From contig CM000154.2 in NCBI GenBank assembly GCA_000004695.1, positions 4,512,001 to 4,576,000 on the forward strand: 64,000 nt of DNA, read 5' to 3'. This document shows, piece after piece, positions 10,269 through 38,114 of the stretch (position 1 is its first letter; each line of letters starts with the position of its first letter). The stretch is from Dictyostelium discoideum. Lineage: Eukaryota. The notes below the pieces were generated by a model. It worked only from the letters and a program-made list of their open reading frames with translations, made no database searches and had not been told where the DNA came from. The position numbers and the translations under genes were made by a program.

Positions 10269-10314
<46 letters not shown>

Positions 10315-10346: not shown

Positions 10347-10862
10347 AAATAAAATTTGTGACGAAAAAAAAAATAATAATTCAAATATTAATTTGGTTTC
10401 ACATAGTTGTAAACATAATTAATTTTGTTTTTTAAATAACCACTTTGGGCAATTTATTGTTTATTTCCTTTTATGGATTAAAACTGATATATCAAAAAAA
10501 ATGTTAGCTAAGTAAATATTAAATAAATATTTATTTAATAACAATAATAATAATAATAATAATGTTTAATTAATAATATTACATAATATAATTGAAAAAT
10601 CTTTTTATATTTAATTAATAAATGATTACATTTAATCTCTTTTTATAACTTTTTTTTTTTTTTTTCTATTTGATCTCTTTTTTTATTATAAATTAAATAT
10701 ATGAATGTTTAGTAGTTTGAAATCATAAAACAATTGGGAATTTTCCTATTGTGGTTGAGCATTACGATGTGCTAAAATCCTAAATTATCTATCGATACAA
10801 GATTCACTTAGTTTTTCAAGAATATGAAATATAAAATAATAACAAATGTAATTTTTTTTTAT

Positions 10863-12288: not shown

Positions 12289-12356
<68 letters not shown>

Positions 12357-15300
12357 GAGCCGATTTAATAATTTCAATTGATTGATTGATTTTATTATTT
12401 TGTAATTGTTGAATTGTGATAATATTATGACCTAATTGATTATCGATAAAATTCTTTAATTGTACAATCACTAAACTATCCATACCATATTGCGTGAGTT
12501 GAAGGTCTTCATTGATTTTAGATTCATCAATCGATAATAATTCACTTATTTTATTTAAAATTGTTGAACGAATAATTTCATTATTATCACCATTACCACC
12601 AGTGAAAGATTTCATTTGATTTGATTTTTTAACAATATTAATTTCAAAATCAAATTTTGAATGGTATTGATTTGTTAAAGTTGATGGTAAAACTTCAAAA
12701 TTGAAATCTGATAAACAGTAATTTGGATATTGATGTTGATTTTGAATGAATAAATCTAATGAACTAATTACGAGTTGAGGTGAGAATAAATTAAAAATTG
12801 AACTCTTAAACATTGTTTCAATTGCATTATTACGTGATACGAAACCAGTTGATGATATCGCACCTAAATTAATGGCTAAAGATGGTAATCCAATTGAATG
12901 TCTATACTTTGATAATGAATCGATAACACTACATGCACTAACATAACAACATTGTTGATCTGATCCAAATATTGAGACTACTGATGATGCCATTATAAAT
13001 TGTTTGATATTCCATGAACGATTAATTGATTGATTGTGAAGATTAATTGCTCCAATTGTTTTAGCACCATGTGTATTATTTAAACGATTCATATCGACTT
13101 GTTGAACATCACCAATATCATTCATAAATGCAAAATGAATGATTGAATCAATGTTTGTAATATTTTCATTTAATTCTAATTGATTTAATACTTGATTAAC
13201 TTTATTTGAATCTTCAATATCTATTTGATTGAAATGGAATTTAATATTATTATCTTTTTTAAATTTGCTTTGATTGATTAATAATTCTAATTCCCATTTT
13301 AATTTTGATTTTGAAAGTATTATTATATTTTCAATTGAATGGTTTGAATATTTAACCAAATATTTTAATATTTCTAAAACAATACCAGTTTGACCAGTGA
13401 GTAAAATATTTTTACCAATATTTAATTTTGAAATATCATATAAATGTTTCATTATGATATGATTGTTATTACTTTGATAATTATTATAAACTCTATTAAA
13501 TTCATCTTGATTATGATTAACAATGATTTTACCAATATGTTTTCTTTGATTTATATATTCAATTGCATCTTTAAATTGATTATTTGAATATTCAATGATT
13601 GGTACACTTAACTCTAATTTATTTGAATTAATCATTTTGATAATTTTCTTTAAATAGCTTTTGATTAATTTACTAGTGAAATCGACAACTTCTACATTAC
13701 TATATGTCATATTAAATTTGAAATGATTATTTGTCATATAATCATTTGGTGTGAGATGAGTGATACTTAAATCAACGATACGTCCTGATAAATTTAAACA
13801 TTGGAAATTTGAATCCATATACTCTGATGATAATGTATTTAATATTAAATCTACACCTTGTTGTTCAACTTCACCTAATTCCATTAATTTATTCTTTATA
13901 TCTTTGACATAGTTTTTATTACGAGATGAATAGATAGCAGTAATTAATGATCCATATTTCTTTATTAAGTATTCTTCTTTATCTTTTGAACTAACTGTTA
14001 AAAATATATAACCTTGATGTTGTTTACTTTTTAATAAATCTAAAGATGATATACCAATACCACCTGCTGCTGAATGAATTAAAATTGATTCATTTGATTT
14101 TAAATTACCAATACTGTAGATACTATGTAATGATGTAATATAAATAGATGGTATTGATGCTGAAACTGAATGGCTATAATTTAATGGTTTATAATAAATA
14201 GAAGTGAAATCTACAATAACATGTGAACTACTTGCTTTTGAACCAATACCACAAACTTGATCACCAACTTTAAATTTCTTTACATTATTACCTAATCTTG
14301 TAATAATACCACTAAAGTCATTACCAATGTTTGGATTATCAATACCAATACCATTTTCAATTTCATACTCTTTACCATACTTAATATCTAAATCTGAACC
14401 AATCATACCGATATACATTAAATAATCTTTATAATTTATACCAGTTGCCTTAACTTCTATCTCTACTTCATTTGAATTTAATTTAGCTTTTTTACTATAT
14501 AATTGATATTCTAAATTTGAATTTAATTGAATATATAAATTATCTTTATTGGTTTCAAATGATTTAGATTGGAATATACTTTTAATATTATTTGATCTTC
14601 TACAATATCTTTCATAGTATACTTTATTATTATTAATTGTAAATTCTTTTTGAATATTATTATTTGGATTGATTAAATAATTGATTAATGATAATTGTTG
14701 ATTATTTTCAATTGAAATATTATCATAATTTAAAGTTAATAAATCTAATTGTGGGAATTCAACGAAATAACGAGCAGCACCAATAATTGATGATGATAAA
14801 TAATTATCAGTGGTTGAATTTAATGATAATAATAAATGTTTGAAATTATTTGATAATTCTAATTTTAATATTAATTGATTAATTTGAATGTATTCAAATG
14901 TGATCTCTTTGAAATTAAAAGTATTCATTGTTGATTCAATTGATTTTAAAAATATTATTAATGTTTTATTACAATCATCTTTATTTTGATAATTTGTAAT
15001 CCATGATTGAAATTCATTGTAATTACTAATATTAACGATTTTGTGTTTTAATTCTTGATTTAATCTTATTAAATTTTGTATACTACTGCTGCAGATATCA
15101 TTTTTATAACTATTAATATTTCTAATATTATTACTGTTACTACTAAATAAAATAATGTTATTGAAAGAATTTAATTGATCTAATGATATTGATTGTTCTG
15201 AAATGATTTCATTAATTGTTGGTTTTCTAGTTTGAATTAAAAATACTAAATTATCATTACCAGACATTATTGTATCTCTATAATTACATTGATTTAAAAG

Positions 15301-16028
15301 GTTAATCCATTTCTCTTGTTTCATACAACATCTATCAGGTCTTAATTCGATATCACTATCAGAGGATGGCCACCATTGTGAAAAACAACCGAATATCGAA
15401 TCAAAATAAAATGATTTGTATGGTGGTTCTATAAATAAAAGTTGACCATTTGGTGTTAATATATTATGAATTTCATTTAATGTTGGTTTGAGTTTCTTAA
15501 CGACATGCATAACATTTGACATTACAACGAAATCATAATAGGATGCTTTAAGATCTTGATCTAATAATGGTTTCTCTAAGTCTAATACACGATAGATAAT
15601 ATTTAAATTGTTATGATTTGTAAATGATGAGAAATTTTCTTTAATTTCAGCGAAAAATGATGCAGATACATCACTCCATGTAAATTCTATATTAATGATT
15701 GATGTTGTACTATTATCGTTTAATAATTTACAAATCTTTTCTAAAATTAATAAACTAAGACTACCAGTACCGCCACCTGCTTCTAATATACGAAATACAA
15801 TTGGTTCATTTAAAATTGGTTTTAGAGTTTCAACTATAATTTCACTTAATAAATTATTTGATGGTTTAATTACATTTGAATTCTTATAAAATTCATCTAA
15901 ATAACCACTTTCAAATAATGATTGTGGTGTATCTGTAATGGAATCATCATCTTTTAATGGGAATAACTGTTTTGCCATTACTTTAGTTGCTCTAATATAT
16001 AAATTTTCATAATTATTATAACCATTAC

Positions 16029-16080
<52 letters not shown>

Positions 16081-19000
16081 TATATTAGGATTGTTTTGGA
16101 ATTTTTTTAAAACTTCAAAAATGAATTTGAAAAGATTTTCATTTGCTAGACTATTATCATAATATAATTGTTTAAATTGATCATATTCTAATGTTGTTAA
16201 TGATTCTAAATTGATACTTGGACATCTTTTATTAATGTGTTTATAAAATAATGATGGTAATAATCCCTTTGAAATGAATCGATTTCCTTCTTCTTTGACA
16301 CTAAATTCATCTACTCTATATAAATGTTTGAATTGTTCAGGTTTATTGATCATAGAATCTTTTGATTGAAGATATGGTGTATAAATTTCATTTGATGGTG
16401 GTTTACAAATTATAGTACTATCAGGATTGGAGCCAACAATAGTGCAAACTACATTTCCAATATCAACTAATAATGTACCATTTGGAAGTATGATTTTAAT
16501 TGATCCTGAATATGTTTGAGAATTGGTTCTTGCTCTAATTTCAGAGTAAACATATAATTCTTTAATTGTATCATTATTATTGCTATTGTTGTTATTATTA
16601 AATGATGGATAATTTGAAGAGTAAAATTTGAAAGCTTCAATTCTATCAAGTACGATTGGTTGTGTAACTGCAACCAATACTCCATGTAAACAAGTATCTA
16701 AAATTGCTGTATTAAAAAATGTATCCATAATACTATTGTTCAATAAATGATTATATTCTTTTTGATTATAAATTTCATTTAATGATACTATTGTCAATGA
16801 ACAATTACTACCGATATGACATTGTTTTACACCTTGAAATAAACCTTTGTATGTTAAATTTGTTTTAATTCTAATAGTTTCATATAAATCTTGTTTTGAT
16901 ATGCTTGTAAAATTACATTTATCTTTTAATGATTGAATATTAATTGGTTCATTATTTTCAATATTATGTTTGGTTAAACTAAAATTACCAAGAGATGATA
17001 ATATCCATTGATTTGTTTTTTGATCTTTATAATGACTTTTAATATTGAATTCATTCTTTGATAGTGGTGCAATTGTAGTTTGTAAACATTGATTATTACC
17101 TTCTGTTAATACCAATGGTGATTTAAATTCTAATGAGCCAATTGTAATATCTTGATTTGGATAAATTGATAATAAATTGAGAACATATCCCATTCCTGGA
17201 TAATAGAATTTATCACTAACTTGATGACCTTTTAACCATTGGAATGGTAATTTCTTGATATCGATAAATGTTTGATATGATGGATATGGTGAATCTGTAT
17301 TATTACCAAGACTATGAATGGATGGACCTTCATTTTTAATCTTTTCATGAAACGAATTAATTTTAAAGTATTCTTTATCATCCCATTGGTAAAGTGGTAA
17401 ATTATTCAATTGATTTGTATTGTTATTATTGATTAATTGTGATTTGAAATTAATATCAAAATTATTATTGACATATAATAAAGAGATTGTCTTTAAGAAT
17501 TCATTATAATCATTCTTCTTTTTATTTAATGGTGAATAGATTGTAATGTTTTTACCATTATTAAAGTAACTTGATTGAGTTGATTTCATTTGATTTAAGT
17601 AATATTGTAATGTTGGATGTGGTGAAACTTCAATGAATGTAATTTCATTACCCATATCATTTGATTCGATATGTTTGTAAAGATTTGTAATTGTTTGTGT
17701 GAAACGAACTGGTTGGCGAATATTATTAAATACATAATCTGCATTGAATGGTGAGCTTTGATGATTGAATAAATTGGTTGTAACTGTTGAAAATACTGCT
17801 ATCGATGGTTGTTTCGATGAAATATTTAATGAACATACTTCATCTTTAATCATTTGTTGACTTGATGTATGAAATGATGATAATAATCCTAACATTGTAC
17901 AAAAGATATCATTTGATTTGAATTCATTGGTAATTTCATTTAATAAGTCTTCATTACCTGAGATAACGATCGATGTTGGTGAATTGTAACATGCAATTTC
18001 TAATGATTCATATTTAGTTGTAGATTGATATTTATTAATGAATTCATCTGAACTAATATTAACTGATAACATTCTACCTGTACCTATGGTTCTATTTTGA
18101 GCTACTGATCTATGGTAAGTCAAGTAGCATAATGTTTGAAAATCAATTATACCTGAACAATATGACGATGATATTTCACCAAGAGAATGACCAATGATAA
18201 TATCTGCTGAAACACCCCAATGTTTATATAATTCATAAAGTGATACTTGAATGATAACATTTGCAGGTTGTGCTAAAATTGGTTGATGAATTGATATTAA
18301 ATCTTTATCATCAATTGATCTTAATTTATCTAAAACTGAATAACCATAATATTTGAATAACTCTTTATCGAATCTATTGACAGATTCTCTAAATATTGGT
18401 TCATTATCATATAATGACGATGCCATTTTATTATATTGTGAACCTTGACCACATAATACCATTACTGTGATTGGCGATTTCTTTTTTTCAACTGTAATAT
18501 TTGAAATTAAATTATCACTATTTTCTAATTTGATTTGATTATTTTCATCTTGAAATTCATTCCAATCACTTGCGATTATAACTGATTTTTGAATTAATGA
18601 TGTTGATTTGAATTTAATTTGATTATGTACAAATTCTTTAAAACTTGTTGTGGTTGATGATGAATTTGAATGTTTAATTATTGATGATTTATAATTATTT
18701 AATGATGTTGATGAATTACTTGAGAGTGGTATTAAATATTTCTTTTTTTCATTAAATTTATTATCAATTTTGATTTTGTGATAACTATTACTTTTATTAT
18801 AACTAAATTGATTACCATAAAATTCAGATAATATTAAACAAACATTTGAACCTAAATAAAAAACATTATTAAAATATTAATTATTTATTTTATAATAATA
18901 AAATATAATGATATATATTTACCTGTAACACCGAAATTATTAAGTAACATGACAGTTGATTTATTTTCATTAAATTTAATTGGTTCAGTGACAACTTTTA

Positions 19001-20622
19001 ATCCCCATTCTTTAAAATTAATTAATGGATTTGGTTCTTTGAAATTAATATTTTGAAGAAATAGTTTATTTTTAAACATTAAACAACATTTAATTAATGA
19101 TGCAACTCCTGAACATGCTATTATTATTTATTATTATTATTATTATAGATAATATTTAATGTTAGTAGTTAATAATTGACTATAGTTATTTATATTTAAT
19201 TAAATTTAATTAACTTACCTTCAGTATGTCCAATATTTGATTTAATTGATCCAACTAAAACTTGTTTGTTATTATTTATTAATGTAGTTGTTGACGCTTT
19301 ATTATTGAAAACTCTTGATATACCTTCTAATTCTATTGGATCACCAGTTGGAGTACCAGTACCATGAGTTTCACAATAATCAATATCAGATTCATTGATT
19401 TGACCATTGGTTGATTTGATTGCTAATTTGATATTTTCATACTGAGATGATTTTGATGGTGAATAAAAGTTTAATTTATCAAAGTTACCATCGATATTTG
19501 AATTTGATCCTTTGATTACACAATAGATGTTATTTGAATCTTTGATTGCATCTTTTAATTTCTTTAATACAACGATACCAACACCTTCTGAACGAACATA
19601 ACCATCAGCATCCGATGAAAATGTATGACATCTACCTGTTGGACTTAGCATATCTAATTTTGTGAATGATTTTGAAATGTGTGGGTCTTTGAATAAATAA
19701 ATAAAATATCAAATTAATATCTTTTTTTTTTTTTTTTTTTTTTTTTTATCACATACCTAATATAAAATTAACACCACCAACAATTGAAACATTTGATTTA
19801 TTTGATTTAATTGAATTATATCCACAATTAATTGCATTTGACGAACTTGAACAAGCTGTATCAATTGTTAAATTTTCACCTCTATTTTTTAAAATTAATA
19901 TAATAGTTAAAATTATAGTTGTGGTAAAAGAAAAGATAAATCAAAAACATACCTAAAATCAAAGCAATAACCAATTCTATTTGCAATAGAATGAGTTGTG
20001 GAACCAAAAATATTATTTTGAGTTTCCAATGGTGATCTTTGAAGATCATTATAATCAATAGTACTACTACCAATAAATGTACTTGTATTGGTACCACGTA
20101 AACTAATTGGATCAATACCACTATCTTCTAATGCTTCCCATACACCTGTTTGTTGATTTTATTTTAAAAATATAATTAATAAATAAATAAATATAAATAT
20201 CTAAATTTTTTGTGGAAAAGTTCAAAAACACTTAATAAATACATACATTTTAATAATAATCTTTGTTGTGGATCTATTGAACTGACATTATCATTGCTTG
20301 GATTAATTGCAAAGAAGATTGGATCAAATTGTTTCCATTCATCAAGTGGAAGTAAACCAGCAAACTTTGAAACGATTTCACCATTTAAATAATAATTATC
20401 AGACCATCTTTCAGAAGTTGTAACGATTCCATCCAATCCATTCAATAATTCATTAAATAATTGATTTGGTTTTGAAATTGATTCTTTTAAATTACCACTT
20501 GGAAATCTTAAACCAATACCAATCACTGCAACATCACCACTACCATCAACATCATCATAATCATTTCTATCCCTTATTAATTTATTATTATAAGTGCTAT
20601 TATTGTGAATATTTTCTGTCAT
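10863..20622 (-). CDS. Type I reducing polyketide synthase PKS-B, complete (KS-AT-DH-CMeT-ER-KR-ACP-R), 7 exons: complement(join(10863..11383,11493..18851,18923..19117,19219..19686,19757..19881,19953..20145,20247..20622)), about 3078 aa
   Basis: ATG at 20622 (MTENIHNN...), then [17 protein letters not shown] motifs: DTACSSS (exon 3), [14 protein letters not shown] and NIGHTEG (exon 4). AT: GQGSQ and GHSLGE. DH: [11 protein letters not shown]. CMeT: [14 protein letters not shown]: [11 protein letters not shown]: GMDSL. R: [14 protein letters not shown] and YVQSK. All introns are GTATGT/GTAAGT..AG, 71-109 bp. Exon lengths sum to 9237 nt (3079 codons) with consistent phases. The terminal exon 10863..11383 is colinear with PKS-A exon 2. 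Confidence 0.85.
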
Positions 20623-20744
20623 TTTTTTTCTTTTTTTTCTAAATAAAACAATAAACAAAATTATATAAAAAATTTTAAAGTATTTATAATTTTTTTTTTT
20701 TTTTAATCAAGTTAAATTTTCATTTAATTTTTTTTTTTTTTTTA

Positions 20745-21008
20745 TTAAAATTTAAAAATTTTAATCAGAAAAAATAATAATTGTGTGTGGGGTAACCTAT
20801 TTAAATTTTATTTATTTTGATTCAATTAATTTTTTTTTTTTTTTTTTTAGTGTGTAGACTGACCACATTCACCACTGTTGAAAATGAGATATAAACTGAA
20901 AAAACAATTCAGTCTTTTTAAATTTTACCTGAATAATAAAAACCATTGTTTAAAAACAGGGTGTGGTGGGACGGGTTATTTTTTCTGATTAAAATTTTTA
21001 AATTTTAA
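20745..21008. repeat. Element with perfect 33-bp terminal inverted repeats (20745..20777 and 20976..21008) flanking a 198-bp core that has G-rich blocks; MITE-like or hairpin-forming
   Basis: Left arm ttaaaatttaaaaattttaatcagaaaaaataa is the exact reverse complement of right arm ttattttttctgattaaaatttttaaattttaa. Internal GTGTGTGGGGTAACC and GGGTGTGGTGGGACGGG blocks are unusual in this AT-rich context. It lies about 120 bp upstream of the PKS-B start. Confidence 0.7.
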
Positions 21009-21377
21009 TTAAAATAATTTCGATAAAAACATCATCATTTTTAAAAAAAAATAAAAAAAAATTAATATTATTTTAAAAAAAAAAAAAAAAATCTATTAAA
21101 ATTGAAAAGATTATTATTATATTCTTTATTGAATGATTTATGTGTTTTTTAATATTTTTATTAATAAAGAACATTTTGGTTAATAGTTGAAAAAATGAAA
21201 TGTAATTTATAATAAATGATTATTATTTTTTTTGAAATTTTTTTTTTTTTTTTTTAAAAAAAATCATATTTTCAATTTTAAAGGTAATAAATTAAACAAA
21301 CAAACAACAAACAAACAAACAATAGTGATGGTTCTAAGGATGAAAATAATATAAATGGTTAAAAATTAATAATAATA

Positions 21378-21449
<72 letters not shown>

Positions 21450-21689
21450 CATTTATTAAAAATTATAATAACCAAAATCAATATGACAAAAATAATTTAA
21501 TTTTTAATAACAAAGATAGTAAATATAAAATTAGTTTTAATAAAGAGTTTTCAATTATAAAAATCAAAGAATCAATAATCAATGATTATTTTAAATTTAA
21601 TTTATTTAAAAATAATCAATTAGTTTATAATAGAATTTTAGCTGATATTTAAACTGGCTATTATGATGGGAATCAAGATGAAATTTTAT

Positions 21690-22030
21690 TTAAAATACAT
21701 GAATATATCAAAAGAAAATTCACAACTGTTCTATCAACTACTCATGCTAAACCATCAACCATAACTGTTCCATCAACTACCCATCTGCACTACCAACCAC
21801 TACTGGCTCACCAACTACTCAGCCGCACCACCAACCGCTACTGTTCCATCAAATACTCATGCTGCACCATCAACCACTACTGTTGCATCAACTACCATGC
21901 TGCATCTTCAACCCAACTGTTCCATCGACTACTCATGCTAAACCATCAACCACTACTGGCCCACCAACTAATCATGCTGCACCACCAACCACTACTGGCC
22001 CATCAACTACTCATGCTTCACCATTAAATT
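21690..22030 (+). repeat. Degenerate tandem repeat, about 39-bp unit x about 8-9 (consensus actactcatgctgcaccatcaaccactactg(g/t)(c/t)ccatcaact), Thr/Pro/Ser-rich reading frame with indels
   Basis: Visible periodicity. One frame reads PSTTHA(A/K)PSTTTGPPTNHAAPPTTTGP... but has unit-to-unit indels (for example catctgca versus catgctgca), so it is not an intact CDS. Confidence 0.7.
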
Positions 22031-22535
22031 AATAATAATAATATTAATAATAATAATAATAACAAATAAATAAATTAACAAATAAATAAATAAATAAATA
22101 GATTAATAAATAAATAAATTAATAAAAAAAGGTAAATAAAAAAAAACTAGTTTTAATATATTTGTGTATTTTTAAAATTGTAAACATGTTTTGAAAAAAA
22201 AAAATTATTTTATTGTTTAAATTTGGTTTAAAATTCAAATAAAAAATGATCAACTCTAAAAACGAAACCCTTTTCAAAGAATGATAATTGTTGGACACCA
22301 CTGCTACAATCAATACCATCATTGAGTTGAAAATTACCATTGAAACCAAATTCAAAAAATTCAGTTTGATAACATGTTGGAAATTGACTACTTGATGTGA
22401 AACATTGTTGATTTAAACCTTTATTAATCTTTGAAAAGTCATTTCTATTTGTATCTAAATTTATTTATTAAATATTATATTTTTGCAACAATGAAAACAA
22501 TGATTAAAATAATAAAAAAATAAATATTTTTTTTA

Positions 22536-24338
22536 TTAATTACGTTTTATGAATAAGGCATCAAAAGGTTTACATTGCATTGCCAAACCAACTTCTCCTT
22601 CAACATCAATTGGAATATCAGTTGGATTGACTATTTTAAAATTCTTTAACATTATCACCAAAAATGTAAAAGTCAAAGATTCTGTAAATCTTCCTCCTGG
22701 ACAACCTCTAGGTCCTGTTTTAAAAAAAATAATAATGATGATTATTATTATTATTATTATTATTATAAATTAGTTGTAAATTAAAAAAAAAAAAAATAGT
22801 GGTAAATTTTAATTCCTTTTTAAAATGGTATCAAAACATACCTGCACCAAAATGAAAAAGTCCTTTTTGATATAAAGGTTGATTTTTAAATCTTTCTGGT
22901 TTAAATTCTAAAGCATCTTCACCCCAAAACTCTTTTGATAAATGTGTACCACGAAGATTTTTAATTATCATTGTACCTTTTGCAATTTTATATCCATTTA
23001 CTTCAACATCTTCTGTTGTTTTATTCGGTTCAGTTATTGGTACTGAAGAATTATATCTATATGATTCTATTATTCAAATTAATACAAAATTTATTTTTTG
23101 AAAAAATATATCAACACATATTAATACCAATATATATATATATATGGATAATTACCATTCATTACAGAAATAATATATGGATATTTTGTATGATCAGCAA
23201 ATGATATATTATTTGTATTATTATTTTCATCATTTCTCATGATTTCTTCATATATTTTATCTTGAATTTCAGGTTTATTAATTAATTGACCAATTAAAAG
23301 ACTAAACCCATTGGATGTTGAATCAACTGCTGCAAAAATAATATCAGAAATTGAAAACAAGATTGAATCATAATGAATTGAACCATCTAAATAATTTTTA
23401 TAATAATTCTCAATAATTGGAATATTGTTTAGTTTTGAAGATGTTTCATCAGTAGTTTCATTTTTCAATTCATTTTCTTTTTCATATTTAATTTTAATAG
23501 CATCAAGTTTTATACCTATAAAATCTTTTAAAAAAAAGTAACTAGAAATAATATCATTCTTTGACATTGATTTTATATCTAATGGAAATAAAAATGGTAA
23601 ATAATCAGAGTAAATTAATAATCCAGCAGCTTCAAAAATGCATTTAATCTTTTCTACAATGATTAGAATGGTTTCATCATTCTCTTCAATTCCTAATGTG
23701 AAATTTAATATTAATTTAACAGCAAGAATCCTAATTTGATTTGGTGTATTTTTAACAAGAGTTTCTTTATTATCTTTACAAAGATTACTAAACATTTCTA
23801 AAATAAATTTATTTGATTCTAATCTGCCATTATTTAACTTTCTTGTTGTAATTTCACTTGTAAGAATTCCTCTTAGAACATAATGATAATCACCATTTGA
23901 AGAAATAATGTTATAATCTTTACCAAAAAATCTTGAGAATTTAATATATCTTTCTTTGAAAATTTCTCTATGTTTTTTATTAAAACATTCATCAATAACT
24001 TCAGGCCCTGTTAGAACAACAATTTCAACACTACCCAATCTTAATCTAAAAACTTTGCCATATCTTTCATAGAAATCATTTACACTTTTTGGGAAATCTT
24101 TTGCGTTAATTTGTAATAAATTACCAAAAACTGGAATTGTAGAAGGACCAGGTATTAATTTATTAATTTTTTTAATCCTACCTTCAAATAATAAATCCTA
24201 TTTAAAAAAATAAAAGTATAAGTAAGTGTTTAATTTTTAATAATCAATAATATATATAATATTTTAAAATTTTACTTTTAATATTAATGATAATACTAAT
24301 ATTGTAATTGTTAAAATAATTGTAAATATTGTATTCAT
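22536..24338 (-). CDS. Cytochrome P450 monooxygenase, 4 exons: complement(join(22536..22714,22842..23066,23156..24197,24276..24338)), about 502 aa
   Basis: Minus-strand ATG at 24338 opens a hydrophobic N-terminus (MNTIFTIILTITILVLSLILK), then a Pro hinge (IPGPSTIPVFGNL) after a 78-bp intron. Exon 2 (ORF 23121..24038) has the I-helix AAVDSTS. Exon 3 has ESYR (ExxR) and FKPERF. Heme-binding FHFGAG|PRGCPG is split by a 127-bp intron between exons 3 and 4. Stop is TAA at 22536-22538. Phases are consistent (63+1042+225+179 = 1509 nt). Confidence 0.85.
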
Positions 24339-24722: not shown

Positions 24723-25321
24723 TATTATTTAATTTTAAAAACAAAAATAAAAACAAAAATAAAAATAAAAATAATGAATTAAAAAAAAAAAAAAAAAAAG
24801 TTATAAGATATCTAATTAAGGGTGTAAAAATTTCAGCAATATTTTTTATTTTTATTAATTTTTTTCTGTAATAAATTCGTAAACATATAATAAAAAAGAG
24901 ATATCAAATAGAAACAAAAAAAATAAAAAAGTTTTAACATTTCAAAAAAAGAGAAGTTTAAAATTTAAGGGGGTAAAAAAAACATTTTTTTTTTTTTTTT
25001 TGTAAATTGACAAACACAAAAGCAAACTATACATTAAGTTAAATCTATTAAATAGTTTTTTATATAGAGTCTCGGGGAAATCACCAGATTTCAAAAAAAA
25101 AAATAAAAAAAAATAAAAAAAAACATAATTTTGGGTCAAATAAAAAACAAAAATTTTTTTTTTTATAGTGCGAATTAAAATTAATTATTTGTGTTGAAAG
25201 TAATATCCAAACAATCTAACCTTTTTTTTATTTTTATTTTTTTAATAACTATAAACGTCATCAAATTTTTTATTTAATTTTTTTTTTTATTTCTATAATA
25301 ATATCAAATTTATTTATTTTA

Positions 25322-25400
25322 TTTTATTCTATTTTATTCTATTTTATTCTATTTTATTGTATTTTATTTTATTTTATTTTATTTTATTTTATTTATTTGT
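25322..25400. repeat. (ATTTT / ATTTTATTCT)n microsatellite
   Basis: attttattctattttattct...attttattttattttatttt. Confidence 0.8.
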
Positions 25401-25477
25401 AAAAGAGAAAAGACACAAAATATAGATAATAATAATAAGGGATAGAAATGATGATGATGATGTTGATAGAAATGATG

Positions 25478-26840
25478 ATTTTTTTTTTTTTTTTTTTTTT
25501 GATATAAATAAACTATTGTAGTATGTTATTTTTATTTATTTATTTTAGGTTTTTTAGTTTTTGTGAATTTAAAATGGTATGTTATTTTAGATTAGGTAAT
25601 TAATAATTAATTGGTGGTGTAATTGTTGGAATTGGTTCATTAGTGTTTATGCTCCATTCTTTTTTAAATTTTTTGATTGTTTCGGACCATTGGGTTTCTT
25701 TTTGAGTTTTTGTGAGGTTGTTTTTAATTGAGTATTGGTTAAAGTTTGATAATGTTCTTGAATATTCCAATCTTATTAGCTTGTGCCATTTTGATTTTAA
25801 TATATCATAATCTAGTGTTGTGTTGTTTATTTGGTTGTTCCAATTATCAATTGATTGAGTTATATTGATGTCAAATAATGATTTGCATAACCATATCCAT
25901 ATTTGGTGAATAACTAATGAGATTATGTTCCAATATGCATGTGTTCTGACTAGATCAAGATTTGTGTTTATATAATTCCAGTTGAACCTGTATTTTTTAT
26001 ATTGTGCGTTTTCTGGAAAATGAAAATTAATATTGATAGTTGGATCTGGTTTAAATGCTTTGTTGTTTGTTTGTGGTTTATAAATGAGTGTGTATAATTT
26101 TGTTGTTTGGTTTTTTGTTAATGACCAGTTTTTGTTTCCATTGCAATTTTTATATATAAAATATTTTAATTTGTCGTGGTTTATGAAGTTGATTGTGTGC
26201 TGACAATTGAAAAACAAATGACCATAGGGATCATTATTCATTTCATTGTTGCAAATGGGGCAAACTTTGTTGTGTAGATGATTAATCGGAAGACATCTAG
26301 CATGGAATCTTTGCATTGTATCACGGCCTTTTGGATCTTTTAATTTTTGAATTTTGACAAAAAGTTGGTCGTATGTGTATTTCCATAATAGTTGTATTGA
26401 TTGTTGGTGCGAAGTAAGAAGTAGATCTGAATATTTCTTGCCAATATAGTCTTTTGATTTGCATTGGTGATTGTTGAGTATTGTCGAGTAGATTTCTTTG
26501 AGTGTTGGTGGTAGTGAAATATTATTTGTGTTTAATGTTTGAGAGGTTTGGTTTTTTGTTAATATTGGTTGTAGGGTTTGAACTTTATCTTTTAGATGTC
26601 CAATTTGAGTTGCATAGTTTTCCCATTCTTTTTTGATTTTTATAAGGTATGGAGAAGAGATTGATTTGTTGATGATTTGATCCATCCAACTTATCATGTA
26701 TATTGAATTGTTTGCAGATTTATGCTTTTGTAAAAATCTGTTGTATATCCAAATCTTTTGAGCAACTTGTCGTAATTGTATATTCCACATACCCCAACCA
26801 CCTTCTTTTAATGGTGTTTCAACAAATTGAAACAAATTGA
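25478..26840 (-). mobile_element. 5'-truncated non-LTR (LINE-like, possibly TRE-type) retrotransposon 3' fragment: ORF2 C-terminal region with CCHC motif, 3'UTR and poly(A)
   Basis: Minus ORF 25600..26835 (411 aa) lies in a locally GC-richer block. It contains CPICNNEMNNDPYGHLFFNC (C-x2-C-x10-H-x4-C), typical of non-LTR ORF2 C-termini. The + strand T23 run at 25478-25500 is a poly(A) tail about 100 nt after the stop. The ORF begins abruptly at about 26835, next to a short caaattgaaacaaattgaaaca direct repeat (26819-26840). Confidence 0.6.
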
Positions 26841-27648
26841 AACAAGTTTTTTTAATGTTTAAAAAAGGAATCTCTAAAAATAACCTATATTTAAAAATAA
26901 TAAAATTTTTTAAAATTCCAACTTTTTAAAAATGGTTTTTTTATTTTTTAATTGAAAAAAAAAAAAAAATTAAACCCAATTAAACAAAATTTTTTTTCTA
27001 ATTAATCAAACATGATATTATTTTCTCCAAATTTAAAATATTTTTAAATTATTCCACATCATAAAATGTATACATATGTGTATTTTATTGTGAAAAATCC
27101 CCTTGTTAATGAAGGGAAATTTTTTTTGAAATTTCACTACAAAAAGATTTGGTATGAAAATTTGAAAAAGACAAAAAAAAAAAAAAAATTAAAATTAAAA
27201 AAAATATCTTCACGTGGGAATTTATTTTCAGAAAAACCTTTTTTTTTTTTCATTTTTTATTTTTTTTTATTTTTTAAATTCTTAATAATAAATAAAATGA
27301 CAGTAAAATAAACATAAAAACAAAAACCAAATTTACAGACTTTATTTTTAAAATCCCCAACATGATACCGATTATCTCCAAATTTAAAATGTTCCACACT
27401 ATATAAAAAAAAGTGGTACTTGATAATTTTAATTAATATTCATTTTTTTTTATTGGTTCACCTATTTTTAACTGCTTCTTACTATAAAAAATAATAGTAA
27501 AAAAAAAAGTAAATAATGCAAGTTTCTAAAAAAAAAAAAAAATATAAATTAAAAAAAAAAAAAACAAAATTTAATTTTAAAATTAATTTAGAATTATTTC
27601 TGGTAATAACTAATAGAGATATTCCTCAACTAAAATAACTAAGCACCA

Positions 27649-30600
27649 ATGAATAATTTAGAAATTATAAATTTAATAGATAAAGGTGTTGCAATTGTTG
27701 GGGTGGGGTTTAGAATTCCTTCTGGTAATAATGAAAATTCAATTTGTTCACCAGATGATTTATTTAATAATTTAAAGAATGGTTTTGATGGTGTTAGTAG
27801 TACATCAGAAAGATGGAGTGACAATTTTCATAAATTAGGTGAAATTAGTAGTCCAAATGCAGGTTTATTACCATTTAATGAATGCAAATCATTCGATCCA
27901 TTATTTTTTGGTATTAATCCATCCGATGCTCATCAGATTGATCCTCAACAAAGATTATTATTAAAATGTACATGGGAAGCATTAGAAGATGCATCTATCG
28001 ATCCAATTTCAATTCGTGGTACAAATACTTCAGTTTTCATTGGTTCTTCAAATATTGATTATCAACATATAAATAAACACCAAGACTCAGTTTTAAAAAA
28101 TGTAATAGCACAATCTGCCTATGCTGTTTCAAATAGAATTTCATACTGTTTCGATTTTAATGGTCCATCATTATCAATCGATACTGCATGTTCATCATCA
28201 TTAAATGCAGTTTCTCAAGGTTATCATTCAATATTAAATGGTACTTCCAATATGTCAATTGTTGGTGGTGTAAATTTAATATTAGGTAAGAATTACATTT
28301 AAATATATTATATATAAAATACACTCATTAATTAATTTTTTATTTAAATATTTTACTAGATGTTGGAATGATAAAAGCATATTCGTATTTAAGCATGTTA
28401 AGTAAAACACATGGTAAATGTAAAGCATTTGATGAAAGTGGCGATGGTTTTACACGTGGTGAATGTGCTACTATTGTAGTTTTAAAAAATTTACAAGATG
28501 CAGTTAAAGATGGTAATAGAATTTATTGTGTAATTAATGGCTCAAGTTCAAACGTTGATGGCGGCGGTCATATGGATAAAGTTAACCTTTATTCACCATC
28601 AAAGCAATCACAATTTAATAATATTAATTCAGCATTTAAATCAACCAATGGTAAACTTTCAATTAATGATATTCAATATATCGAAGCACATGGTACTGGT
28701 ACTAAAACAGGCGATCCAATTGAAACTGAAGCAATTTCAATGGCTTTTAAAAATAGAGATAAATCAACACCAATTCTAATTGGTTCAATTAAAAGTAATA
28801 TTGGTCATTGTGAAGCTGGTTCAGGTGTTGCATCATTAATCAAATGTTGTTTAATGTTTAAATATCAATGCTTTTTACCAAATATTCATTTCAAAAATCC
28901 AAATCCATTAATTAAATTCAATGAATGGAATTTAAAAGTTGTAACATCACCAATTCCATTCAACAAAAGAATTAATGAAAAACCAGTTTCAATGATGATT
29001 AATAACTTTGGTGTAACAGGTTCAAATTGTTGTTTACTTATTTCAGAATTTAAAAAACAAGATTATGAATCATATGAAAACAACAACAACAACAAAAGTA
29101 ATCATAAAAATATATTAATACCATTCTCAGCAAATTCATCAAATTCATTAAATCAATACCAATCAAAATTTAAAAATATAATTAATAATCAATTCAATTT
29201 TATTGATTTTACCGCAAATCAAATTTATTCAAAATCAAATTATCTTTATCAAAGATCAGTTGTAATTGCAAGTAATTCAAATGAACTTTTTGAAAAAATT
29301 TTAAATAAAAAACAAATTCAAACTAAAAATTCAATCATTTCGAATATGTCATTCAAAGGAAAGAACCCAATTACAATTTTTGTTTTTTCAGGTCAAGGAT
29401 CACAATATCCTAAAATGGCTTTAGAATTATATAATAATGATGAAATTTTTAAGAAGTCAATTGATTTAATCGATTCAAAATTATCAAAGTACTATGGTTA
29501 TTCAGTATGGGGGAAGTTAACAACGATCAAAGATGATGACTTGACCTCAATACATGATCCAATTTTCGCACAACCAGCACTGTGTATGCTTTCAGTATCA
29601 CTATTTGAAATATATTGCCATTGGGGAGTAAATCCATCATTTATTCTTGGTCATAGTCTTGGTGAAATTTCAGCAGCATATTGTTCTGGAATGATCGATT
29701 TAGATACATTCTGTTATACAGTTTATTACAGATCAATCGCCCAATCTAAAACAAATGGTTGTGGTAGAATGTTATCAATTAATATCAGTGATGAAGAATT
29801 TAAATCAATGTATTCTCAAAAGTATCCACAAATTGAAATTGCGTGTTATAATTCACCTCAATCAATTGTTGTGGCAGGTAATGAATCAATATTAAATGAA
29901 ATTTCGAAAGAATTAAAAGAAAAAGAAATTTTCACTGCAATGTTAGGTTCATTATCATCATTCCATACAAGTAGTCAGCAATGTACAAAAGATAGTATAT
30001 TACAACTAAACATTGAAAGTAATCAACCAAAAGTACCAATATTTTCAACAGTTACAACAAATTTATTTAATGAATCAAATCGATTTAATTCACAATATGT
30101 TTATGATAATATTATCAAACCAGTTAAATTCACACAAACAATTTCAAATATTTATAAACATATCGAATCAAATCAATTAAATAATGATATTGTATTCATT
30201 GAAATTGCACCACATCCAACAATATCATTTTATATTAAGCAAATGGTACCATCAAGTTTAAATGAATCAGTTTCAGTTTATTCAGCACTTCACAAGAAAA
30301 AGAATGATGTCGAAGAGTTTCAACAAACCATTTCAAATTTATATTGTCAAAATGGATATAGTATTAATTTTAAATGTCAATTGGAAAATAAAAAATCAAA
30401 TCAATCAATAAATTTACCACTTTACCAATGGGATGATGAATTATACTTCGCTCAAACTCAAACACTTGAACAATATACAAAAGAAGGACCACCAATCGAT
30501 CATCTTGGTCTATCAAACTCTTATTATTCACCATTTAAAAATTCATATAGAACATTTATTGATATAAATAATAAACCATTCCAATATCTTAAAGGTCATA

Positions 30601-33600
30601 TGGTTAAAGGTAAATACTACTTCCCAGGTTGTGGTTATATCGATATTATTATTCAACTTTATAAAAATCAAGATATTTTTATTAGTTTTATTGAATTTAA
30701 AACACCATTAATTTTAATTGAAGGTATCAATCAATATTTACAAACAAACATTCAACAAACTGGTAAAAGTGAATATCGTGCACAATTTCATTTCAAAGAT
30801 CAAAAATCAAATGAATGGATTCAATCATCAAATGCAAATTTCCAATTATTAGATCATGGTAATGATATACCATCAAATTATAATATTGAAGAAATTATTA
30901 AAAACAAATGTAATTTGAGCAAATTAACAAAGAATGAACTTTATACACAAATAAAATCAAAAACTGGTTTGAATTATACTGGTGTTTTTCAAGGTGCTAC
31001 TGAATGTTATTTAGGTAATGATTGTTCATTATCAGTTTTATCTTTAAAATCTCAAACAAATTCATTTTTAAATATACCAATTTTAGATACATGTTTACAT
31101 GGAATGTTAGTATTAATAAATGATCAAAGTCAAATTGTATTTGATAAAGCCATTGGATTTAAATATTATTCATCAAACATACCATCGGATCTTAAAGAAT
31201 ATAAAGATAGTATTTATGTTTATTCCAATTTAAAACCAAAAAATGCTGATTCATACCATGGATCTATTATAGTAATGTTATCAGATGGTTCAGTTTTATA
31301 TGAAATTCAAGAAGTTATTTTTAAATCATTAATTCCAATCAAACATTCACTTAAAATTGAGTATCCAAATGATGAATTATACAAAGTTCATTTACAATCA
31401 AAAGATTCTCAAATTCCAACGCCATCATCATTCAAATCAATTATTTATGAAAATGATTTCTTCCATTCTGCACTTAATATTCCAGAAGATTTATTCAAAT
31501 ATATTTCAACATTATTTTATAAAGATATTATAAAAAGATGTCCAGAAATTAATATCAATAAAATTAATTCTCATAGTGTTAATGAAATTATTTCAAGTTT
31601 CAGTAAAATTTCAAAAAATCAAAGATTATTTAGATTTGTATTTGAAACAATAAAAGAGAATGGTATTCTTAATAGTTTGGAAGAAAATGATGATGCTTAT
31701 TTCGAATTTAATGAATTAGTTATTAAATCATCAAAAATTATTTCAAAATTATTATTCCCACTAGAAAGTGATAATGATAATGAAGATTTACCTCAATCAT
31801 TATTTCAAAATGGTTTAATGGATAAAATTTATAAATGCAGTTATTTAAGAAAGAAGTATCAAATGATTTCACATGTCATTATACATTCAATTAAAGAGAT
31901 TATTAATAATAATATTATAATTAGAATTTTAGAATTTGGAGGAGGCACTGCGTCATTATCAGTTGAAGTTATTGGAGAAATCGTTGCATTACTTCAAGAG
32001 AATCCAAATTATCAAGTTGAAATCGAATATACATGGAGTGATATTTCACCTGCATTCATAGCAGATGCAAAGAATAAAATCAATAAAATCATTAATGATG
32101 CTGCTATAACAAATGGATTAAATGTTATTTATCGTTCATTAACAATCGATGAATCATTGCTTGAAAATCAAGCAATTAAACCATCATATTATGATTTCGT
32201 TATAATGTCAAATGTTCTTCATGTTGTTAAAAATATTAAACAAGCTGTAGAACAAATGTATCAATTGTTAACACCGAATGGTCAATTGCTATTTATAGAA
32301 CCACCTTATAAATCAGTTCTAATCGATTCAATCATTGGTTCATTTGAACAATGGTGGTCATTCACTGATACTGATATTAGAAAAGATAGATGTGGTATGT
32401 CTCAACAAAGTTGGTATCAATTATTAAAGACATGTAATTTTAAAGACATTTTAATGTCAAAAGAATGCATCTTTGTTGGGTCAGTAATACATGCACAAAA
32501 ACCACCAATTTCTTTATTGAATTCTCAACCAAAACATGATAATATAATTATATATGGTGGTGGTGGTAATTTAAGTTTTGTAGAAAACATCAAATTAGAT
32601 TCAAATTCAAAAAGTTTAATTCAAATTGAAACTATTCAAGAATTTAATCAATTATTAAGTCAATCAACAATTACAAATGATTCAATAATTTATTTCATAA
32701 AAACATTAGAAACATTATCATTGGATAATTATAAACAAATAACTCTTGAATATATTGAAATCAATCAAAGACTATTACAAATCAATAGTTTATGTAAACA
32801 TGTATTAATTGTTAGTGATTCAAGAAAAACTAACTATTTAGCATCATCAGTTGTTGGTGCTGCAAGATACTTTGATGAATTCCAACAATTGAAATTACAC
32901 ACATTAGATTTTGATTATGATTCAACTCAAAATTATATAAATTCAAAAAATAACAAAATGGTTCAATTCATTAATATCTTGGTGGACTCCAAAACAAATG
33001 TTCATAAAGAAATGATTATAATTAATAACAAAGTATATTATGAAATAGTTCAAAAAGAGAAAAATCTAAAACTAAAATACAATTCAGAATCTTTTGAAAA
33101 TCAAAATAATTTAATGTGTTCATTATCACCAAATTTAGAATATCAATTACAATCAAAACAAATTAAATTAAGAGATAATCAAGTTGAAGTTAAAACAATT
33201 GCAACTGGTATCAATTATAAAGATTATTTAAATTTTAGCGGTTCAAATAATAATAATGGTGATGACAATACAGGTTTACCACAATTTGGATATGAATTTT
33301 CAGGTATTATAACAAGAGTTGGTAATAATGTAAAAGATTATAAAGTTGGTGATAATGTATTTGGTTTATCAAATTCTTGTACATCATCCCACATTGTTAC
33401 AAATTTTAAAAATATTCAATTAAAACCTTCAAACATAAGTCATAACGAAGCATCATCAATTCCAATTGATTATTTAACATCATTTATGAGTTTATTTAAT
33501 GTTGGTAGTTTAAATATTGAAGATAATGAATCAATTCTAATTCATTTAGGTAGTGATAGTTTTGGATTATCAACATTTGAAATATTAAAATGGAAAGGTT

Positions 33601-35267
33601 TTAAATCAAATTTATTCGTTACAGTTGATTTGGACGAAACTAAACAATATCTTCTAGATAGATATGGTGATTTTATTACTGGAATTTATTCAAACACAGA
33701 TAAAAGTTATGTTACAGAAATAAAAAACGAATTAATTAAATTAGGTTCAAAAAAGAAAGGAGTAGATTTAATATTAAATACATTACCAAGTGATTTTATG
33801 GATTCAAATTTCGAGTTATTAACAAAGAGTGGTAGAATAATTGATTTAACTTCAAATCATTTAAATCAAAGTGAATTTTTAAAAAATATCAATTTTAAAT
33901 ATAACCATGGTTACCACAACTTTCAGTTATCATTAATTCAAAAAAATAAAATACAAAAATGTTTATATGAAATTTCACATGCTATTGAAAATGGAGAATT
34001 AAAAACTATTCCAATTAAAGAATTTACAAATTTAAATATTAAAGATGCCATCAAATACATTACCAACGGTAACATTGAAAAAATTACAGTTAGTCATGAT
34101 CATGAAATTTATAGTGATATTATTTATAGATCTTTAGATGAAAAAGAGTTTTCAATATTAAAATCAAATTATCAAATTAATTCAAATAATTTAGGTAAAA
34201 ACATATTAATTACAGGTCAATCAGGTATTATTTTAGAAATATTAAAATGGATCATTAAATATTCAAATATTAACACAATTGAAAATGTTATTATTCTTTC
34301 AAGATCATCATTAAAATGGGAATTAGAATTATTAATTAATCAAACTAAACTATCAAATAATAATATTAAATTTCATTTCAAGAGTGTTGATGTCGGTGAT
34401 AGTGAACAAGTTGATAATGCAATCAATGAAATATTAAATGAAAATCAACAAATTACAAATATTGATTCAATATACCATTTTGCATTTCAACAAATTACAT
34501 GTAAAGTTCAAGAAATCAATATGAAACATTTAGATATTTCACATGGAGCAAAATCAATGGGTGCAGTTAATTTACATAATCAATCAATTAAACGTAATTG
34601 GAAATTAATTAATTTTGTTATGGCTTCTTCTGCACTTTCATTAATAGGTTCAACAGATCAATGTACATATGCCTGTGCAAACCTATTATTAGATTCATTT
34701 TCAAAATACAGAGAATCACTTGGATTACCATCTGCTTGTATTAACCTTGGGTCAATTGAATCAACTGGTTTCGTTTCAAAGAATGAATCAATTTCAGAAT
34801 TTACAGATGGCATTGGTTACGTTCCAACACCTATCAATCTAGTTTTAGGTCTTTTAGATTTACAAATTCAAAATGCAGGTAAATTTACGAATTCAATGCT
34901 TTCAAATTTAATATCATCAAAATTTAAAAATATTCAACAAACATCATTATTTCTAAAATTTGATTACTTGATGAATTTAAATGACAACAGTGAACAAACT
35001 AAAAAAGAGAATATTGGAAATAAAAACATTGATGAATTATTCATTGAGAAAGTTTCAGAATTATTTTCAACGGATCAATCAAGAATAAATAAAAATCTTA
35101 GATTAATTGATTATGGCGCAGATTCATTAATAATAGTTCAATTAAAGAATTGGATAGATAAAGAAATTGGTATAAATTTAATAACAATTAAACAACTTCA
35201 AAACAATACAATTAATATTTCAATCAAAATGATATTAAATTCATTAATGAAAAATAATCAAATATAG
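27649..35267 (+). CDS. Type I reducing PKS-C (KS-AT-DH-CMeT-ER*-KR-ACP), 2 exons: join(27649..28285,28360..35267), about 2514 aa; terminal R domain lost
   Basis: ATG at 27649 ([27 protein letters not shown]). KS: [10 protein letters not shown], a 74-bp phase-1 intron after VGGVNLILG, then [14 protein letters not shown] and [12 protein letters not shown]: GQGSQ and GHSLGE. DH: [11 protein letters not shown]. CMeT: [12 protein letters not shown]. Degenerate ER motif: [16 protein letters not shown]: [15 protein letters not shown]. It terminates with ...NSLMKNNQI* at 35267, where PKS-D continues into about 415 aa of R domain. Confidence 0.85.
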
Positions 35268-35639
35268 ATGACAATAATAATACATACAATAGATATTAAC
35301 CCAATGAAAATCAAAACATTACTAGAATTATCAACAGATAATGGGTGATCTTGAAATTTTTTATTTAAATAAGATTCAAATTTTACTTTGCGTTTTTTTT
35401 ATTTAATATTTTTAGATTTGGGTAGTTTTGGACATTATAAAATAAAAAATCTAAATCTAAATAAAATAAAAAATACAAATCTAAATTATTCTTTTTTATA
35501 AAAAAAAAAAAAAAAAAAAAAGTCAAATCAACATAAAAACATCTTCAGACATTATTTTTAAAATTGAATTTATAAAAAAAATTTTATTTATAAAAATAAA
35601 ATTTTTTCTCAATTAATATAGATATTTCAAAACTAAATT

Positions 35640-37120
35640 ATGAATAATTTTAAAAAATATAAATTTAATAGATAAAGGTGTTGCAATTGTTGGGGTGGGG
35701 TTCAGAATTCCTTCTGGTAATTATGAAAATTCAATTAGTTCACCAGATTATTAAATTTAATAATTTAAAGAATGGTTTTGATGGTGTTAGTAGTACATCA
35801 GAAAGATGGAGTGACAATTTTCATAAATTAGGTGAAATTAGTAGTCCAAATGCAGGTTTATTACCATTTAATGAATGCAAATCATTCGATCCATTATTTT
35901 TTGGTATTAATCCATCCGATGCTCATCAGATTGATCCTCAACAAAGATTATTATTAAAATGTACATGGGAAGTATTAGAAGATGCATCTATTGATCCAAT
36001 TTCAATTCGTGGTACAAATACTTCAGTTTTCATTGGTTCTTCAACTATCGATTATCAACTGTTTCGATTTTAATGGTCCATCATTTTCAATGCATGTTCA
36101 TCATCATTAAATGTTGTTTAATGTTTAAATATCAATGCTTTTTACCAAATATTCATTTCAAAAATCCAAATCCATTAATTAAATTCAATGAATGGAATTT
36201 AAAAGTTGTAACATCACCAATTCCATTCAACAAAAGAAATAATGAATTACCAGTTTCAATGATGATTAATAACTTTGGTTTAACAGGTTCAAATTGTTGT
36301 TTACTTTTAACAGAATATAAAAAACAAGATTATGAATCATATGAAACTATCTACAAAAATGATAATAGTAAAAATATATTAATACCATTTTCAGCAAATT
36401 CAACAAATTCATTAAATCAATACCAATCAAAATTTAAAAATATAAATAATAATCAATTCAATTTTATTGATTTTACCGCAAATCAAATTTATTCAAAATC
36501 AAATTATCTTTATCAAAGATCGGTTGTAATCGCAAGTAATTCAAATGAACTTTTTGAAAAAATTTTAAATAAAAAACAAATTCGAAATAAAAATTCAATC
36601 ATCTCAAATATGTCATTCAAAGGAAAGAATCCAATTACAATTTTTGTTTTTTCAGGTCAAGGATCACAATATCCTAAAATGGCTTTAGAATTATATAATA
36701 ATGAAGTAATCTTTAAAAAATCAATTGATTTAATCGATTCAAAATTATCAAAGTACTATGGTTATTCAGTATGGGAGAAGGTAAAAAAAATCAAAGATTA
36801 TGATACTACTTCCATTCATGATCCAACTATTGTACAACCAGCAGTGTGTATGTTTTCAGTATCATTATTTGAATTGTATTGCCATTGGGGAGTAAATCCA
36901 TCATTTATTCTTGGTCATAGTATTGGTGAAATTTCAACATTATATTGTTCTGGAATAATCGATTTAGATACATTTTATCACAGATCAATAGCACAAACTA
37001 AAACACACTGTAATGGTGGGCATCCACTGATATTGATATTAGGAAAAATAGATGTAGTATGTCTCAACAAAGTTGGTATCAATTATTAAATAACAGTAAT
37101 TATAAAGACATTGCAATGTG
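35640..37120 (+). pseudogene. Mosaic PKS pseudogene between PKS-C and PKS-D: promoter and 5' end copy, KS N-terminal fragment, deletion, KS C-terminus plus AT fragment, deletion, short CMeT fragment
   Basis: 35655-35700 duplicates the C and D 5' ends (aaatttaatagataaaggtgttgcaattgttggggtgggg). ORF-track fragments 35678..36073 and 36073..37089 read KS, AT ([22 protein letters not shown]) and a DIRKDRC...QQSW CMeT fragment in shifted frames. There are multiple indels and no intact frame. Confidence 0.8.
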
Positions 37121-37803: not shown

Positions 37804-38114
37804 CATATGTACAAAAAAATAAATAAAAATAAATAATTTAACAACAAAATGAACACAAAAACAAAATACATTTCTTCAAGTATTATTTTTAAAATAAATC
37901 AAATGTGCTGTTAGTTAATCTCCTGAATAAAAATTTTTTATAAATTTTACCACATAAAGCCTTTAAAAAAAGTTTGTGTTTAATAATTTTAATTAATAAA
38001 ATCATGTAAATAATGAAAGTTTTTTAAAAAAAATATAAATTTAAAACAACAATATTTAATTTTAATAAAAAATTTTCTTCACTAATTTTGATATTTCAAA
38101 ACTACTAAATACCT

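Follow-up and report, generated by a model that had tools for sequence, protein, structure and literature searches.

The transposon fragment beside the P450 gene in the window, as we call the 64-kb stretch of Dictyostelium discoideum DNA analysed here, consists, judged by its sequence, of the 3′-terminal 1,337 bp of a minus-strand TRE3-B non-LTR retrotransposon, at 25479–26815. Our account of this remnant, to which as a whole we give a probability of about 0.8, is as follows. A full-length TRE3-B of approximately 6.4 kb entered PKS-X, a PKS paralogue, leaving a 10-bp target-site duplication that indicates target-primed reverse transcription; a solitary B-box-like motif 74 bp upstream may have steered the insertion; and a later non-homologous event, or else an assembly join, would have removed the 5′ 5.06 kb of the element together with the body of PKS-X. 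Relative to an earlier sequence-only reading of the locus, the additions are the assignment to TRE3-B, the target within the coding region of a PKS paralogue, the secondary nature of the truncation and a speculative B-box explanation for the site. The element itself is ordinary and already known, offering nothing new because it belongs to a described family in a well-studied genome; its history is unusual.

The assignment to TRE3-B came from protein comparisons. A search with the minus-strand open reading frame (ORF; 25600–26835, 411 aa) returned eight relatives, six of them D. discoideum proteins with 86–99% identity, and in three of the eight, PF00078 (reverse transcriptase, RT) precedes the shared region. 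The window ORF is 99% identical (398/404) to residues 986–1389 of the gene model P0011, a protein of 1389 aa with Exo_endo_phos at 422–530, RVT_1 at 726–846 and a zinc knuckle near residue 1170. This order of endonuclease, RT and zinc knuckle matches the description of TRE ORF2, in which endonuclease and RT are followed by a zinc finger (PMC5006619). The family name derives from DDB_G0291686, whose dictyBase product is ‘TRE3-B ORF2’ (PMC12405889, Table 2); it falls in the same 90% cluster as P0011 and is 97% identical to it over the part overlapping the window ORF, which identifies the element as TRE3-B rather than a cellular gene. Membership of a cellular gene family, which the sequence-only reading had named as the outcome that would speak against a retroelement, was checked and not found, the longer relatives having endonuclease and RT upstream of the C-terminal region. 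The two-ORF layout of such elements was also recovered, with an ORF1 of 402 aa in the L002 copy and homologous sequence in L003 (loci introduced below), and is missing from the window fragment.

Within the window ORF, codons 8–411 (26815 down to 25603) are derived from the element. The CX2CX10HX4C zinc knuckle on the minus strand, the stop codon and the untranslated region of about 100 nt that had been read from the letters were all present (Table 1). The knuckle is kept in D. discoideum copies and in the 38%-identical relatives P0007 and P0008; a Pfam search of the ORF returned no family above cut-off, zinc knuckle included, and gave only sub-threshold zinc-finger noise. The adjoining T run is real, although it comprises 22 T from 25479 and not, as first reported, 23 T from 25478. 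Taken alone, such a run would be uninformative, because the window has 22% GC and holds 26 runs of A or T that are 18 bases or longer. We nonetheless identify it as the poly(A) tail because the A runs of four other copies (L001a, L001b, L002 and L003), which differ in length, start at the same element position; the window and L003 both have A22. The window copy thus retains the zinc-knuckle part of ORF2 and lacks the endonuclease, RT and ORF1. With these and a promoter missing, the remnant is inert, and its lasting effect is the inactivation of PKS-X.

Table 1 Features of the TRE3-B remnant and its flanks in the window, and distances between tRNA genes and TRE3-B at other loci
Feature	Position in window	Strand	Description
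Poly(A) tail	25479–25500	-	22 T on the plus strand
3′ UTR of TRE3-B	25501–25599	-	99 nt; alignable base by base to the 3′ UTRs of four further copies
TRE3-B ORF2, C-terminal 404 codons and stop	25600–26815	-	Corresponds to residues 986–1389 of the 1389-aa P0011
ORF2 stop codon	25600–25602	-	
Zinc knuckle CX2CX10HX4C	26203–26262	-	CPICNNEMNNDPYGHLFFNC; ORF residues 192–211; ‘HC’/zinc-finger domain at the ORF2 C terminus
Seven non-element codons with TTG start	26816–26835	-	GTTTCAACAAATTGAAACAAATTGAAAC; ORF runs on into the flank by chance
Putative secondary rearrangement junction	26815–26816		Element sequence and collinearity with L003 both end
Target-site duplication, 3′ copy	25469–25478		GAAATGATGA on the plus strand, TCATCATTTC on the element strand
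PKS-X stub	25410–25478	+	Start-codon remnant AAG (ATG in paralogues; loss of T), frameshift, codons ...DRNDDDDVDRNDD
TRE3-B copy L001a			tRNA-Val (TAC); 39 bp from tRNA end to element junction
TRE3-B copy L001b			tRNA-Val (AAC); 64 bp from tRNA end to element junction
TRE3-B copy L002			tRNA-Phe; 57 bp from tRNA end to element junction
TRE3-B copy L002s (206-bp piece)			tRNA-Asp; 49 bp from tRNA end to element junction
TRE3-B copy L007			tRNA-Thr; 48 bp from tRNA end to element junction
TRE3-B copy L006			tRNA-Gly; 53 bp from tRNA end to junction; inverted fragment adjoins the tRNA

We compared seven loci from other Dictyostelium assemblies (L001–L007); L001, L002, L006 and L007, which carry TRE3-B besides L003, all come from one assembly, GCA_054883475.1. 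The neighbouring P450 gene matches CYP514A1, with two exons 100% identical to P0054 (EAL62077 of AX4, KAM9948325 of GCA_054883475.1), and it was P0054 that led to L003. Window positions 26819 to 12228 match L003 positions 7521 to 22111 at 99.98%, and the match ends abruptly at the 5′ end of the window element. In L003, the element extends 5.06 kb beyond that point and is full length, covering 6,395 bp from its 5′ end at 2465 to its tail at 8859. Its 5′ terminus, (A)nCGAAACAAAGAAATAAACGAG, is shared with the L002 copy, where it follows closely on tRNA-Phe. A 10-bp target-site duplication, TCATCATTTC, occupies L003 2455–2464 directly before the 5′ end and recurs directly after the A22 tail (possibly 11 bp, with one A common to the tail), indicating ordinary target-primed reverse transcription.

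When the L003 flanks were rejoined across the element, they yielded an uninterrupted PKS N-terminal frame that runs from ...DRNDDDDVDRNDD onward into L003 2454 downwards and aligns with the N termini of PKS-B in the window and of the PKS genes in L004 and L005. The body of this gene in L003, PKS-X, is absent from the window and is 96% identical to PKS-B and 95% to PKS-A, values low enough to mark it as a separate gene. PKS-X stands head-to-head with CYP514A1; in L004 and L005, which come from more divergent strains, the same head-to-head PKS/P450 pair is found with approximately 1 kb between the genes and without the element. We therefore place the TRE3-B insertion, in antisense orientation, within the first ~70 bp of the PKS-X coding region. 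The earlier description of an insertion between the P450 and PKS-C is too simple, as a third PKS paralogue, now dead, has the site within its 5′ coding region.

Several details of this flank deserve mention in their own right. Just upstream of the PKS-X stub, 25310–25399 consists of 5-bp repeats of the (TATTT)/(TATTC) type; repeats like these are found ahead of the PKS start codons in L004 and L005, which is why we regard this segment as the old PKS-X promoter region. The stub itself (25440–25478) contains a duplicated GATAGAAATGATGAT, giving it 9 extra in-frame bases relative to PKS-B, and the target-site duplication falls in the second GATAGAAATGATGAT repeat. The CYP514A1 gene model (22231–24338, minus strand, 575 aa) has an extra 3′ exon at 22231–22452 relative to its paralogues of 500–502 aa; this exon may be an annotation artefact.

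A tandem PKS duplication covers window positions 27489–35458, 35459–37005, and 37998–40458 and beyond: PKS-C with ~160 bp of upstream sequence recurs as a partial broken copy (87–91% identity) and again as PKS-D (91.5%). The sequence-only reading had proposed that the transposon mediated the C/D duplication, a role for which we found no support. Upstream of PKS-C, homology starts at 27489 for the PKS fragment (matching 35459) and at 27501 for PKS-D (matching 37998), so that the duplication boundary lies approximately 670 bp from the element and is free of transposon sequence, and the window contains a single TRE piece. As the homology starts only at 27489–27501, the paralogous upstream regions of PKS-C and PKS-D contain no empty site. 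The structural change that the element marks is a different one, the loss of PKS-X.

How the fragment came to end at 26815 is a separate question from how it was inserted. To the right of the junction, the flank GTTTCAACAAATTGAAACAAATTGAAAC includes a tandem repeat of 10 bp and is not matched in any TRE3-B copy, and a search of 26816–27648 for PKS remnants or repeats, against TRE3-B copies, PKS genes and the fetched loci, gave low-complexity matches only. The fragment had been described as a 5′-truncated LINE-like copy. It is indeed a non-LTR 3′ part on the minus strand, whereas the notion that it was truncated at insertion does not agree with the full-length copy in L003. A classical dead-on-arrival LINE copy, for which reverse transcription was aborted at 26815 and the element was 5′-truncated upon insertion, would have ample company, since 5′-truncated TRE3-B copies of like size are common (1.6 kb in L001a, 1.1 kb in L001b and 2.2 kb in L007). 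However, an abortive copy should have a target-site duplication flanking 26816, and a search for TCATCATTTC there found no copy of the 3′ flank. In addition, the insertion in L003 is the same one, with an identical 3′ flank and A22 tail and with surrounding DNA that matches at 100%, and there it is full length and has its target-site duplication. We thus consider abortive reverse transcription highly improbable. Given the full-length insertion in L003 and the lack of a 3′-flank duplication at 26816, truncation would have followed insertion, and we infer that the junction at 26815/26816 arose secondarily and without homology, through a real deletion in this strain lineage or an assembly join, and not by abortive reverse transcription. 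Compared with L003, the window is missing, at minimum, 5.06 kb of the element and the PKS-X body.

Over 14.6 kb, the window and L003 differ by two substitutions only. These fall inside the TRE3-B remnant, at positions 26726 and 26611, no more than 210 bp from the junction. At 26726, the deviating base (Met to Lys) is found in the window alone, and at 26611 the deviating base is unique to L003. A real deletion with mutagenic repair, the presence of a second element copy or the mixing of reads in a repeat could each account for such clustering; the pattern hints against a simple old deletion, which does not predict it.

These differences also bear on the possibility that the junction is an artefact of the window assembly, in which case the chromosome would have the L003 structure and reads would have been joined across repeated TRE3-B/PKS sequence. 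The protein identities suggest that the window is the 2005 Sanger AX4 reference, and L003 comes from a newer assembly with nearly identical sequence that may be the AX2-214 assembly of PMC12745789, built from Nanopore and Illumina reads. The sole two differences between them sit in the repeat, adjoining the junction, as an artefact of this kind could produce. By contrast, the sequence to the right of the junction is not a repeat within the 64-kb window or the seven loci, and collapse via a shared repeat therefore cannot make the 26815/26816 join. The short tandem duplication at the junction resembles repair filler, and a second truncated copy would have no tRNA gene or B box on its 5′ side. 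An assembly artefact consequently seems rather unlikely to us, and the junction is more likely to represent a real deletion than an assembly join.

Unequal homologous recombination would provide another route to a chimeric element, if the full-length copy in PKS-X had recombined with a second, 5′-truncated TRE3-B upstream of PKS-C and the intervening DNA had thereby been deleted. This would accommodate the clustering of two differences from L003 within the final 210 bp, the remaining 14.4 kb having none. TRE3-B copies differ from each other by 1.2–2.2%, and TRE3 repeats have been noted near copy-number breakpoints in laboratory strains (PMC2643946); the same copy-number study of laboratory stocks makes no mention of any PKS locus. 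However, with one difference private to the window and the other to L003, neither resembles a switch to any other copy in the sample. The second copy that this scheme requires would be an orphan as well, neither strand of the window having a tRNA gene or B-box motif, and no other TRE piece that might have served as a recombination partner was found in the window at the protein or DNA level. We judge such an exchange improbable and retain the secondary non-homologous junction as the preferred explanation.

The remnant in PKS-X is atypical for TRE3 in that no tRNA gene lies nearby. TRE3 elements are reported to lie ‘always’ downstream of tRNA genes (PMC5006619), more precisely 40–150 bp downstream, in the same orientation and after an internal or external B box (PMC5911963). 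At six other places, we found TRE3-B sequence starting 39–64 bp downstream of a tRNA gene, five of the six in tRNA orientation (Table 1), a pattern that agrees with the rule of PMC5911963 and shows that the TRE3-B family targets tRNA genes. The alternative suggestion of the sequence-only reading, that the fragment belongs to a family that does not target tRNA genes, is therefore at odds with the behaviour of TRE3-B at these six loci. Two of the loci have a more complex structure. L001 9591–12268 contains two tandem TRE3-B copies past one tRNA-Val, a 5′-truncated copy followed by the 5′ kb of another, in keeping with the description in PMC5391098 of a single tRNA gene being targeted repeatedly. 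At L006 7212–10099, TRE3-B pieces lie head-to-head beside tRNA-Gly, where an inverted 5′ fragment (element 12–838) abuts a 5′-truncated forward copy, an arrangement that suggests local rearrangement.

We searched for Pol III RNA genes with ARAGORN on the window and the seven loci, and with Rfam at gathering and permissive thresholds. No tRNA gene was found in the whole 64-kb window by ARAGORN or at the Rfam gathering threshold, nor around the element by Rfam at E values up to 10, which upholds the earlier observation of no tRNA-like sequence within 500 bp and extends it to the full window. The orthologous 22-kb locus, L003, likewise has no tRNA gene and no other Rfam RNA above threshold. A U6atac-like match (E=3) and a sub-threshold fluoride-riboswitch match in the Rfam search were treated as chance; the former (13.9 bits) lies at 27096–27165 on the plus strand, where a short hairpin (CCCTT...AAGGG) is followed by a T run, and is probably fortuitous. 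The B-box-type motif G[AT]TCGANNC is absent from both strands of the window, and the canonical B box GGTTCGAATCC, with up to 2 mismatches allowed, had fewer matches in the window than in shuffled sequence. The window copy thus does not follow the TRE3 location rule. Its membership of TRE3-B rests on sequence, and it is an exception to the targeting rule of its family.

L003, which retains the PKS-X sequence lost from the window, has a B-box-like 9-mer, GATCGATTC, at 2391–2399 on the element strand, the complement of the PKS-X coding strand, starting 74 bp upstream of the insertion point and followed by TTTT. This 9-mer is identical to the one at the expected external B-box position, between tRNA and element, in L001b (−31) and L006 (−20). 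Its own position, −74, compares with a range of −60 to −85 for internal B boxes in tRNA-linked copies, five of which contain one according to this pattern. G[AT]TCGANNC occurs 14 times in 407 kb of strand sequence, with 11 of the 14 occurrences at or beside tRNA genes; the pattern was defined after the site had been seen, and the chance probability is roughly 0.001–0.01. At the same codons (ESIS), the PKS paralogues read GAATCAATTTCA or GAATCTATTTCA, and PKS-X alone reads GAATCGATCTCC, with three synonymous differences. The published D. discoideum B box, GTTCRANNC, occurs about once per 7.5 kb (PMC5391098), and GATCGATTC has one mismatch to it, at position 2. No A-box-like motif was found upstream of GATCGATTC in L003, and a lone B box is reported to work poorly as a target of the related TRE5-A (PMC5391098).

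These observations raise the speculative possibility that a solitary B-box-like motif, perhaps a TFIIIC site, may have guided the off-target insertion in PKS-X. The stronger proposal, that TRE3-B integrates away from tRNA genes when given a lone B-box-like sequence and that three synonymous PKS changes created GATCGATTC, with a full-length element then landing 74 bp downstream and destroying the gene, is tentative, and we would put it somewhat short of an even chance. Alternatively, the insertion may have been random, with the poly(A) RNA primed by chance on a nick or break in the PKS gene without Pol III factors; we give this even odds. The random alternative is favoured by the fact that there is one locus and that the motif is non-canonical, lacks an A box and was noticed after the fact. 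It has to contend with the rarity of the motif, which has three matches away from tRNA genes in the 407 kb, and with its placement on the correct strand, at the distance of an internal B box and uniquely in PKS-X among the paralogues. If B-box guidance were true, nature would have supplied evidence, in the PKS-X insertion, that the B box (TFIIIC) and not the tRNA gene is what TRE3 reads, and that silent mutations can turn coding sequences into retrotransposon targets.

Whatever guided it, the window copy is a clear exception to the ‘always’ of PMC5006619 and indicates that supposedly safe elements can disrupt a gene. The PKS/P450 cluster also differs in structure between two nearly identical D. 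discoideum genomes, either as a strain difference or through assembly error, which is relevant to counting or knocking out PKS genes there.

Compared with TRE3-B as known from its other copies, the window remnant has 97–99% protein identity to annotated ORF2 pieces, belongs to an ORF2 in which the endonuclease precedes RT and RT the zinc knuckle, and ends, like them, with a short 3′ UTR before its poly(A) tail. It departs from them in lying inside a protein-coding region without a tRNA gene within tens of kb and in the loss of its 5′ 5 kb through what would be a secondary event. Mammalian L1 elements are known for 5′ truncation and for L1-associated deletions. Like the window copy, they insert by target-primed reverse transcription, end in a poly(A) tail, are flanked by a short target-site duplication and encode a C-terminal CCHC-type motif, and their truncated copies have a similar look; unlike them, the window copy would have been truncated after insertion, and TRE elements usually avoid genes via Pol III targets. 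A further parallel is provided by TRE5-A, which integrated into the extrachromosomal rDNA palindrome at sites that have a B box, or A and B boxes, but no tRNA gene (PMC5391098; PMC5633606). In that case, as in L003, a TRE-family element lies at a fixed distance from a B-box-type motif outside a tRNA gene. However, the TRE5-A insertions were experimental and involve a different subfamily that inserts upstream and prefers sites with both A and B boxes, whereas the L003 insertion is one natural event, downstream of a non-canonical solitary motif that is a putative TFIIIC site.
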